From the IMG/VR virus record IMGVR_UViG_3300036406_001149: DNA of 64,000 nt; one strand, written 5' to 3'. The translations under genes were made by a program, and so were the position numbers. Source of the stretch: a virus. The notes under the pieces were generated by a model, which was not told where the DNA came from, ran no database searches, and saw only the letters and a program-made list of their open reading frames with translations. Of the stretch, positions 915 to 18,308 are shown piece by piece (positions within the stretch are counted from its first letter, which is position 1; each line of letters begins with the position of its first letter).

Positions 915-3900
915 ATGGCTAGTACTTTTAACCTTACTGCACAACTTAACCTAAGAGGTCCTGCTAATATTAGAGCTGTTGTAGCTAATATTAGAAGACA
1001 AATAGGTACTATTGATGCTAATGTTAATATTGTTGTAAATCCTGCTGCGGTACGTAATTCTACAGCACTTAATACGGCACTAGTAAGACTAAACACCACA
1101 TTACAAACTACTACTGTTAATGCTACCAGTGCTGCCAATGCCATTAATGCATTAGTAGCATCAATGACTTCTGCTTCTAGTCTTAGACCGCCACCAGCTT
1201 TAGTCAATATGCCAGGAACACTAGCTTCTATAGGAGACGCTGCTAGACCGATTGGAACAACTATAGAAACAGCAACTGGTGAAATTACTAATTTCGGTAG
1301 ACAAGCAGGATTAGCTGTTAGAAGATTCTCAGCTTTTGCTGCAACGACAGGTATTATTTATTCGTTTACTAATGCTATTAATAGTGGATTAAAAGCGTAT
1401 ATAGAATTTGATAAACAATTAACAAGATTATCACAGGTAACAGAAGAGAGTCGATCAGGACTTACGGGCCTTACCAATAATATTACTAGTTTGGCTACAT
1501 CTCTTGGCGTTAGTTCATCAGAGCTAGCTAATGTATCAGTCACGCTTGCTCAGGCTGGTTTAAGTGCACAGGATACATCCAAAGCTTTAAAAGCGTTAGC
1601 TCTTAGTGCTTTGGCCCCATCTTTCGATCAATTAAATGATACCGTAGAAGGTAGTATCGCATTGATGAGACAGTTCGGTATTAGCGCAGGGGATTTAGAA
1701 GGAGCACTAGGCTCCATAAACTCAGTTGCTGCTAAATTTGCCGTTGAAGCTTCTGACCTTATTACAGCTATTCAAAGAACCGGTGGTGTGTTCGCATCAG
1801 CTAGTCGCGGAGTTAGTGAAGGCACAGATGCTTTAAATGAATTCTTAGCAATTTTTACCAGTATTAGAGCTACTACTCGTGAAAGCGCAGAAACTATTGC
1901 AACAGGTTTAAGAACTATTTTTACTAGAATTCAAAGAGCAGAAACTATAGACGCTCTAAAAGAATTCGGAGTTGTACTTACAGACCTTGAAGGTAAGTTC
2001 GTAGGACCATTCGTAGCCGTACAAAGATTAGCAGAGGGCTTAGGAAGATTAGATCCAAGAGATTTAAAATTCTCACAGATAGTTGAAGAGCTTGGAGGTT
2101 TTAGACAAATAGGTAAAGTGTTACCACTTATTCAACAATTCGCCACTGCTCAAGAAGCATTAGCGGTTGCTCAAGCTGGACAAGGATCTTTGGCGACTGA
2201 CGCAGCTAAAGGACAATTAGCATTAGCAGTACAAATTCAAAAAGTGAGAGAAGAGTTTGCAGCACTAATACGAAGTATCGGAGAAACAGATAGTTTCCGT
2301 ACAATGATTACACTAGGTTTGGATTTAGCTAGTGCTTTAATAAAAGTTGCTGACGCAACCAAAGGAGTGCTACCATTAGTAGGTTTGATGGCCGCATTCA
2401 AAGGTATTAGTGGTATTACGCAATTTGCTACTGGATTTGCTGGAGGACTTAGAGGCACTCCAGCTACACAAACCAGAAGATTTGCTACTGGTGGTTATGT
2501 TCCCGGTTCCGGAAACAGCGACACTGTACCAGCAAGATTGACTCCAGGAGAATTTGTAATTCGTAAAAAAGCTGTAGAAGCTATTGGCGTTGGTAAATTA
2601 CAGGCTTTGAATAGAAATGCTGGCGGACCAATATCCATTCAGAGATCTAGTATTGGCAGAGGACCTGTCCAGAAATTTAGTGTAGGAGGAAGCCCTGAAA
2701 CACAAACAAATAATGAGTTAACTACTCATAGAACTCATATAGGTCCTAAAATAGCATTATCTCCAAAACAAGCAAAACTAGCAAGATCCTATGGATACAG
2801 CCAGTCTTACGCAGCGTTAGGAGCAGAAAGACAAATTGACTTTGCTCCGTATCTCCCAGCAGTTTGGAATGAACAATGGAGAAGAGGCGGATCAAATAAA
2901 GGAGTTGCTCTTTCTGAAATCCTTAATTATGTTAATCCAAGATCACCAGAACAACTATTTGGTAGAGGAGGTATTCCTTCGTTACTTTATAATAAATTAT
3001 CTAGAAGAAACCAATTACTGCCTTTAAAAAATGTTTTCTTATCCGGATTAAGAGCAGCTCCTTCACTTATTCAAAAAGATTCTCAACTAGATTTTATCTT
3101 GCCAAATTATATTAAACCATTTTTAGATTCATTAGATCTATGGTCACCATTAGCTGAAAAACAAACCTTAACTATTCCTAGAAAATTTTCAGGAACTGAT
3201 GTTTTTAAGACCTTGTTAGACAAAGGAGTTCTTAAAACAAAAGTAAGAACTACTACACCAGGTATTCGTAAATCTTTAGCTCAGGATTTAGGAAATACTT
3301 TTGCCAATGGTGGTTCTATAAGAGCATTCGCTGAAGCAGGAGCAGTGTCTGCTACAGGTGGCAAGCCAGCAACTGCCTCGGAAATACTCAGGGTATTAGG
3401 AGCACAAAAAGCTGCGGCTGCTGGTGGAATATCTTCAACAGATGTATATACTTTACTTAAAAAACAAAAATTAACACCAGAACAGGAAGCAAGTAAAAAA
3501 GCTATTTTTGCAGAATTTACTAAACAACAAAATAGATTATCTGGAGCACAAAAGGCTAAAACCACCAGAGCAGAATCCAAAGGACTAGTATTTGGCGCTG
3601 CTGGTATGATGGGATCCGCATTTGCTCCTATTAATAAGACTATTAATTCTAATTTATTAAAATCTCCGGTGAGTGTGAGGATTGTTAGTGGACTTATGAA
3701 TCCAGATACAGCAGCTTCTCTGGACCAGTCTTTTTCTTCCTCTGTTAACAAAACTGCCAAACAAGCTGCTAAAAAAGTAATGGTGGCTGATATTTTATCT
3801 AATCTTGGTCTTGGTAGAGAATTGAATTTGGATTTTGACAGAACATTAGCTTTTGGAGCAGATAAAGTGTTGGCTGATCCAAAAACTCCAAAGTTTGCTG

Positions 3901-18308: not shown

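Follow-up and report, generated by a model that had tools for sequence, protein, structure and literature searches.

Eight conserved units at the module junctions of a giant phage tape measure protein: a candidate site of post-assembly processing

The 64,000-nucleotide (nt) window analysed here is part of one 114,711-bp uncultured virus record (IMGVR_UViG_3300036406_001149; GC content ~35%). Near its 5' end lies the gene of a giant tape measure protein (TMP), in which a glycine-rich unit of ~75 amino acids (aa) occurs eight times. Comparisons with related proteins firmly place these units at the junctions of a protein mosaic, and profile searches place the same unit in TMPs from lambda to actinophages. 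By analogy with the mapped cut in T5 pb2, there is about an even chance that the units are post-assembly processing junctions of a polyprotein-like, effector-carrying TMP, a reading in which we infer the cleavage itself.

By its matches to curated models, the gene product is a TMP of the TP901 / PhageMin_Tail type. Its N-terminus matches PF10145 (PhageMin_Tail; E 9e-22, 78 bits vs a cut-off of 33) and TIGR01760 (tape_meas_TP901; E 9e-27, 94 bits vs a cut-off of 29), and several PHROG TMP families also match. The first of its modules is 55–68% identical across at least 646 proteins of 3,188–10,145 aa. One of these proteins is labelled as originating from a Sphingobacteriia metagenome-assembled genome, which is a host lead only.

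The eight copies, located with a repeat finder and a regular expression, have the D of DTVPA at aa 536, 1437, 2656, 3701, 4234, 4856, 5346 and 5611. A hidden Markov model (HMM) profile derived from the copies scores each of them at E 2e-19 to 1e-38, which excludes chance. The conserved stretch is longer than the ~20 aa described in the first-pass annotation. The 727 units of 151 giant relatives share the consensus a.GG.vYAs.G.lv.fqP.GTDTVPAMLTPGEFVVNrkATqknLpLL.aIN.g.Ys.GG.V.Yla.GG, with conservation of 94–99% at its D, P, A, L, G, E, V, L, N and GG positions.

The mosaic structure emerges from an all-against-all comparison of the 151 giant TMPs; these are related proteins, so the counts are not independent events, although the difference from the controls is large. 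Among high-scoring segment pairs (HSPs) of at least 200 aa, 60% of interior ends fall inside units vs 11% at random, and 14.5% of interior starts fall inside units vs the same 11%. When internal unit pairs with a homologous flank are considered, both sides are homologous in 7% of pairs vs 57% at random pseudo-junctions. The upstream side alone is homologous in 72% (vs 7% at pseudo-junctions) and the downstream side alone in 21% (vs 36%). Individual relatives have a similar pattern. P0153 is collinear with the giant TMP at 94% identity. P0004 is 92–94% identical except for a replacement of aa 4637–4831, the right edge of which is the start of unit 6. In P0012, aa 4215–4906 are 72% identical and the remainder 33–40%, and this block begins in the core of unit 5 and stops where unit 6 ends. 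HSP endpoints outside the units peak at aa 1200–1250, around a relic half-unit, and P0009 has a full unit at the boundary where the giant TMP has a relic box at aa ~4405–4420. From these alignments, the units are firmly identified as the module junctions of a mosaic.

The homology blocks have a polarity: most begin within a module and stop at the next unit. The sequence directly after a unit is the most variable, and a unit tends to move with its upstream module. Modules 5 and 6 (12186–15392) are a divergence hot spot, with 86% and 79% identity vs 95–99% elsewhere in near-identical relatives, and identity jumps back sharply to 96–100% at unit 6. An isolated patch of 100 aa at 5700–6000 (aa ~1601–1700) is 61% identical to P0153 inside module 3, which is otherwise 92–100% identical, and may be a small replacement away from any unit.

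The copies are ancient, their synonymous sites are saturated, and they are held by selection on the peptide, with no recent duplication or gene conversion. Two 45-nt strings at 15468 and 16938, in units 6 and 7, are in frame and both encode PRGTDTVPAMLTPGE; all 7 of their differences are at third positions. The near-identity of these two peptides, with divergence at third positions, had been noted from the sequence at first reading and is thus confirmed. In the 18-codon core of the eight copies, the mean proportion of synonymous differences (pS, Nei-Gojobori) is 0.67 and that of non-synonymous differences (pN) is 0.12, with pN ~0.05 among copies 3–8. Identical residues share the same codon between copies in 45% of cases vs 46.5% in random draws from the codon usage of the gene (95% range 40–54%), and exact nucleotide matches between pairs of units are at most 8–20 nt long. 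These figures indicate that the copies are old and that only the peptide is held, in agreement with the earlier proposal, to which a check of the dN/dS type had been attached, of peptide-level selection without recent duplication.

The same values bear on the idea, also put forward in the first-pass annotation, that the copies serve as joints for cassette exchange. Modules are indeed exchanged at the units, as the HSP ends, the flank comparison and the unit 6 breakpoint in P0004 demonstrate. Selection for recombination homology at the DNA level is not supported, since codon identity equals that of the flanks or of random draws. Between 50 genomes, the same-codon fraction at conserved residues is 0.46 for unit 1, 0.40 for its core and 0.44 for module 1. 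Scans of IMG/VR and metagenomes returned no relative. Exchange at the units is real but looks like a by-product: the units alone are both shared and tolerant of it, and it is no adaptation at the DNA level. That the units are kept mainly as recombination joints, with in-frame homology selected for cassette swapping, is very improbable. The coincidence of mosaic boundaries with units and the P0004 breakpoint are what this explanation would predict. However, nucleotide-level conservation is lacking both between and within genomes, the peptide is conserved in single-copy TMPs (lambda gpH, Cheetobro gp22) that have nothing to swap, and selection on viable chimeras would place boundaries at linkers in any case.

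The element is widespread. Searches with tblastn place the unit in genes annotated as TMPs in phages of Gordonia, Mycobacterium, Nodularia, Ralstonia, Burkholderia and Shewanella, among others. When a profile of 64 aligned units is searched against PDB sequences, it matches the TMP of mycobacteriophage Douge (gp16) twice, at 963–1035 and 1411–1460 (E 1e-13), and lambda gpH at 732–795 (E 0.004). Unit 1 matches lambda gpH 754–776 by BLASTP (E 4e-5), and hhalign aligns the unit with lambda gpH at E 4e-5 and 70% probability. These sequence matches firmly support that the unit is homologous to the element in lambda gpH and in the actinophage (Douge) TMP. A local HMM search finds three copies in Gordonia phage Bosnia gp17 and one in Cheetobro gp22. 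The T4-like cyanophage Bellamy of Synechococcus has the unit in gene 12 (6014–8413), which is annotated as hypothetical and lies in the gp29 position, after the genes for the gp26 hub and the gp51 hub assembly catalyst; it is probably a gp29-type tape measure.

A profile search of 1.84 billion representatives yields 15,588 cluster representatives at E<=1e-3 and 839 at E<=1e-30. The best 150 of these matches all have 3–11 copies in proteins of 935–7,872 aa. In the 151 giant proteins, the median start of the first copy is aa 518, the median distance from the last copy to the C-terminus is 145 aa, and each extra copy adds ~620 aa of length (r 0.60). Eight copies were at first thought exceptional, wrongly, as HMM counts per TMP reach 9–11 in relatives. 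The expectation that the motif occurs in many TMPs, usually in few copies and with no assigned function, is borne out: there are usually 1–3 copies and no Pfam or NCBIfam model. Searches with single units against Pfam, NCBIfam and PDB sequences found no family, and the Pfam lambda C-terminal model spans gpH 627–701, outside the junction element. No description of the motif, of a TMP as a polyvalent protein, or of giant effector TMPs was found in the literature. The sequence of the element is known in annotated TMPs but without a name, and giant modular TMPs are firmly established as a very large class not yet described.

The argument for processing rests on the unit edges. An A/S-x-G-G-h-h-Y box opens every unit and closes most. 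The strict box pattern has 10 matches in the TMP, all at unit edges or at the relic at aa 4410, and 1 match in 29,455 aa of the other long open reading frames (ORFs) of the genome. T5 pb2 contains exactly one box, AEGGMMY, which starts at residue 1128, the P1' position of the mapped cut. Linares et al. place this cut after R1127 by LC-ESI-TOF-MS (liquid chromatography, electrospray ionisation, time-of-flight mass spectrometry), where it parts the enzymatic C-terminal portion from the rest (PMC10038345). The position just ahead of the box, counted over 366 units, is K or R in 49% and F, L, M or Y in 42%, and the first box residue is A or S in 71%. The T5 site (R, then A) fits the box consensus (K/R/F/L)↓(A/S)-x-G-G-h-h-Y, with the arrow at the putative cut. 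In lambda gpH, gpH* arises once the tail has been assembled, by a cut within a glycine-rich region for which the study states that the exact position is not known (PMC12617516). Two boxes occur in the lambda protein, at 734 (KFHF↓ATGGF) and at 779, and a cut before A734 would yield fragments of ~79.8 and ~12.4 kDa, which roughly fits, within gel error, the reported ~78 and 14 kDa. The box-only relic at aa 4410 persists at a sub-module boundary and is counted in favour of cleavage. The suggestion in the first-pass annotation that each copy may be a protease site thus gains indirect support from the T5 and lambda parallels.

On this evidence, the element may be described as a glycine-rich, intrinsically disordered tether of ~75 aa, with a strand-plus-helix core (DTVPAMLTPGEFVVN...L.LL..IN) between A/S-x-G-G-h-h-Y boxes. 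Ordinary TMPs carry one to three copies, as in lambda gpH, where the single copy lies between the tube-filling gpH* and the tip-bound C-terminal fragment. In this clade of uncultured phages, the element has been reiterated between scaffold modules (the N-terminal TMP domain, long helical modules and the C-terminal tail) and freely exchanged cargo modules such as a C3-like mono-ADP-ribosyltransferase (ART). After tail assembly, the chain would be cut at the boxes, as T5 pb2 is at R1127↓AEGGMMY, with the core used for docking or recognition. Separate polypeptides, stacked in the tail lumen, would then be ejected C-terminus first into the host. A broader version of this proposal is tentative and somewhat doubtful. 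It holds that the box is a general TMP processing signal (mapped in T5, predicted at F733↓A734 in lambda) and that giant TMPs are polyproteins cut into at least nine pieces, a tail-tube cartridge of separately injected effectors and scaffold parts into which new effectors are inserted at the units.

Several results weigh against cleavage at the units. None has been observed in any protein having the full unit, and the authors of the Douge study report none (PMC13033339). T5 pb2 has the box alone, its match to the core being not significant (no match with the unit HMM; hhalign E 0.31), which leaves no demonstrated role for the core despite its strong conservation. Basic and hydrophobic residues both occur at P1, a mixture not usual for one protease acting alone. 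A protease was found neither in the TMP nor in the genome, a record estimated to be only 83% complete: Pfam gives no peptidase match, and JAB, C39 and NlpC/P60 domains are absent. D27, E37 and N56 of the unit are 94–98% conserved in giant TMPs, but lambda lacks the D and the N, and T/S is not universal; with no family-wide nucleophile in the alignments, self-cleavage of the Ntn, SEA/GPS, Hint or Asn-cyclisation types is not indicated. The enrichment of orphan boxes at block ends is weak (2.2% vs 1.3%, 1.7-fold), and the lambda mass agreement is not specific. The HSP statistics, drawn as they are from related proteins, count here as well.

Two candidates were set aside on these grounds. T5 pb2 was rejected as a full member of the unit family on the HMM and hhalign results, and orphan boxes were dropped as module-boundary markers because the enrichment is too weak. 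In T5 pb2C (14122–14400, minus strand), the AEGGMMY box is followed by ...GEHGTEVVTPM, which loosely aligns with G.GTDTVPAM at nearly the same spacing. This stretch may be a decayed half-unit, at the same non-significant hhalign value.

The physical nature of the unit is pertinent to the principal rival. The AlphaFold2 model of the unit, from the 64-sequence alignment, has a mean pLDDT (predicted local distance difference test) of 62 and a pTM (predicted template modelling score) of 0.29, and its only helix, at residues 48–62, lies over L.LL..IN. The suggestion in the first-pass annotation that each copy is a folding unit is not supported by this model. In lambda gpH, residues ~690–817 are unresolved by cryo-electron microscopy (cryo-EM) (PMC12617516), and in the Douge TMP only 1658–1699 are resolved (PMC13033339). 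The low-confidence model and the two cryo-EM gaps together point to a flexible tether with a short recognition core.

The units might instead be uncut docking or oligomerisation clasps, which fold on binding other TMP chains (in trimer or hexamer register), the tail assembly chaperone or the tube lumen and hold the long, cargo-laden chain in register. This is rather unlikely, though several observations suit it. A monomer that is disordered apart from an amphipathic helix with L..LL..IN is typical of a fold-on-binding segment, and the strongly conserved hydrophobic and Gly/Pro positions suit an interface. In lambda, T5 and Douge, the C-terminal part of the TMP forms a trimer, and the Douge authors model a continuous trimeric TMP (PMC13033339). 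Modules are also always in one ORF: in 0 of 79 loci is a gene split at a unit. This last result is neutral for cleavage and shows that covalent linkage at synthesis matters. Clasps, however, leave the T5 cut exactly at the box and the box-only relics at sub-module boundaries unexplained. A rigid, ordered clasp is also contrary to the invisibility of the homologous regions in three cryo-EM studies, and no partner has been identified.

A role of the units in helping the modules across the host envelope at ejection, as signals for export or membrane insertion or as small autonomous domains, is improbable. The TMP does exit the tail C-terminus first, the lambda terminal fragment, which has the motif, is proposed to exit first with gpI (PMC12617516), and the core is moderately hydrophobic. 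Yet AlphaFold2 predicts no fold, no known signal or domain family matches, and the phages with the motif infect bacteria that differ greatly in their envelopes (Actinobacteria, Proteobacteria, Cyanobacteria and probably Bacteroidota). TonB-box-like, double-glycine leader/C39 and SGNH GDSL-like readings of the motif were dropped because spacing or required residues misfit or the hosts lack the partner.

At least one cargo enzyme is firmly identified. The segment at aa 1215–1420 is a C3-like ART domain that ends where unit 2 starts. PF03496 matches it at E 1.3e-4 and 21.8 bits, just below the cut-off of 23.4, and its Atlas score with ADPrib_exo_Tox clusters is 0.90. The STS and ExE motifs are intact and do not vary among five homologues. 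The AlphaFold2 model has a pTM of 0.64, and its Foldseek matches are all ARTs of the Certhrax, C3 or iota Ia type, with TM-scores (template modelling scores) of 0.45–0.5. At the LY(S/T)(G/S)I position, the Arg expected for an R-S-E triad cannot readily be made out.

Module 6 is 79% and 64% identical to relatives that are otherwise 94% and 92% identical, and forms islands of 70–81% identity in proteins otherwise 30–40% identical. Its sub-modules occur apart in other proteins, in places bounded by full units. The last sub-module (14700–15392, aa 4596–4826), the segment replaced in P0004, gives a weak ART-PolyVal lead: its nearest Atlas cluster (score 0.89) has ART-PolyVal in 22% of its members, with no Pfam match. 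It begins with ...SLFHAS... followed by GQGLYTY, which resembles an ART of the H-Y-E type. At 3816–4260, the motif order LDFDRTL ... ITARP ... K ... FVDDD is HAD-like by eye only; Pfam at E up to 5 gives no match there. Searches of the eight inter-unit segments against Pfam at E up to 5 yield noise only, and a PDB sequence search with both halves of the TMP yields nothing. The remaining modules have no recognisable family in the PDB sequence and Pfam searches.

In lambda gpH, the element is placed like the last unit of the giant TMP, with the tube-filling part on one side and the tip-bound C-terminal helix on the other. The homologous region includes both A-T-G-G boxes, GEFV and the IGVG.L helix. 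It is likewise near the C-terminus, ending 58 aa before the end of the 853-aa protein. Unlike the giant TMP, lambda gpH has one copy, no enzymatic cargo, and neither the D nor the N that are near-invariant in giant TMPs. In lambda, the link from motif to cut is putative. T5 pb2 (pb2* + pb2C) resembles the giant TMP in that its cut frees an enzymatic portion at a sequence that fits the box consensus, but it differs in having a single site and no significant match to the unit core. Douge gp16, Bosnia gp17 and Cheetobro gp22 are siphophage TMPs with 1–3 internal units; they are far shorter (1,390–2,142 aa), cleavage is not reported (Douge), and no Pfam cargo between copies was detected in the two actinobacteriophage TMPs scanned.

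MARTX toxins, which bacteria secrete, carry exchangeable effector modules in one chain with linkers that are cut, together with RTX repeats and a cysteine protease domain of their own. The array of effectors and linkers is alike in outline, but there is no cysteine protease domain, RTX repeat or bacterial secretion here, and the comparison is an analogy only.

Polyvalent proteins are large, multidomain proteins delivered with DNA that carry ART and other conflict enzymes and are proposed to be processed into separate products (Iyer et al. 2017, PMC5512222). The giant TMP is similarly multidomain, delivered with DNA and the carrier of an ART, and processing is proposed for both. Polyvalent proteins are head-packaged or type IV-secreted and typically processed by an embedded zincin-like metallopeptidase, whereas the carrier here is a TMP in which a junction unit is repeated and the searches find no peptidase domain. 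As to the several enzymatic domains that characterise polyvalent proteins, the giant TMP has one well-supported ART, a weak ART-PolyVal lead (0.89) and a HAD-like motif order seen by eye only. Tape measure proteins are nowhere mentioned by Iyer et al. (0 occurrences of 'tape').

The unit thus defines a widespread unannotated TMP element, which occurs in 15,588 cluster representatives and spans lambda, actinophages and T4-like cyanophages. For lambda, the box points to F733↓A734 and gives a cheap, concrete prediction for a 40-year-old gap, the cut of gpH to gpH*. The metagenomic TMPs of 3,000–10,000 aa (at least 646) are modular carriers with cargo (the ART and many unknown modules) swapped at junctions. 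The inter-unit modules supply a list of proteins that are candidates for anti-host or anti-defence roles and are cleanly delimited by nature. If giant TMPs are processed, the tail lumen would be a second route, beside the capsid, for delivering batteries of early effectors. If the box is a general processing signal, these proteins would be a phage-tail counterpart of multi-effector autoprocessing toxins.

Table 1. Features of the giant TMP gene in the 64,000-nt window (aa, residues of the protein).
Feature	Position	Strand	Remarks
Giant tape measure protein gene	915..18308	+	One ORF, 5,797 aa, spans all eight copies
TP901-type TMP N-terminal domain, aa 149–477	1359..2345	+	PF10145, TIGR01760; within module 1 (aa 1–514)
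Junction unit 1, aa 515–592	2457..2690	+	HMM E 2e-19; most lambda-like (FATGGY...PARLTPGEFV...IGVGKL)
Relic half-unit, aa 1193–1214	4491..4556	+	GG motifs, no core, outside strict box pattern; between HAD-like part and ART domain; repeat family D5
C3-like ART domain (cargo), aa 1215–1420	4557..5174	+	Ends where unit 2 starts
Junction unit 2, aa 1421–1498	5175..5408	+	HMM E 8e-20
Junction unit 3, aa 2628–2716	8796..9062	+	HMM E 1e-38
Junction unit 4, aa 3672–3757	11928..12185	+	HMM E 1.5e-35
Junction unit 5, aa 4204–4288	13524..13778	+	HMM E 2.5e-35
Module 6, hypervariable cargo region, aa 4289–4826	13779..15392	+	Three independently mobile sub-modules
Relic box, aa ~4405–4420 (SRGGVIYAAEG)	14127..14174	+	Repeat family D4; strict box match aa 4410; boundary of sub-modules 6a/6b
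Junction unit 6, aa 4827–4914	15393..15656	+	Start is right breakpoint of P0004 replacement
Junction unit 7, aa 5316–5402	16860..17120	+	HMM E 3e-36
Junction unit 8, aa 5581–5669	17655..17921	+	Last copy; HMM E 1.6e-38; ends 128 aa before C-terminus
C-terminal tail, aa 5670–5797	17922..18305	+	30–53% identity to many relatives

The C-terminal tail of the giant TMP is presumed to be the tip-binding end, by analogy with the C-terminal helices of lambda gpH (818–849), Douge (1658–1699) and T5 pb2C in the tail tip. The ORF 5' of the TMP gene (79–825) has no chaperone match in PHROG or Pfam. On the 3' side, six co-oriented ORFs at 18326–39194 encode proteins of 936, 453, 592, 1,795, 2,526 and 635 aa. 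A Pfam scan of these six gives no match, and only the 2,526-aa protein matches PHROG virion/baseplate repeat families. The coding strand switches at ~39.7 kb, after which comes a series of short minus-strand genes (39700–64000), and GC content falls to 27–29% at ~42–48 kb.

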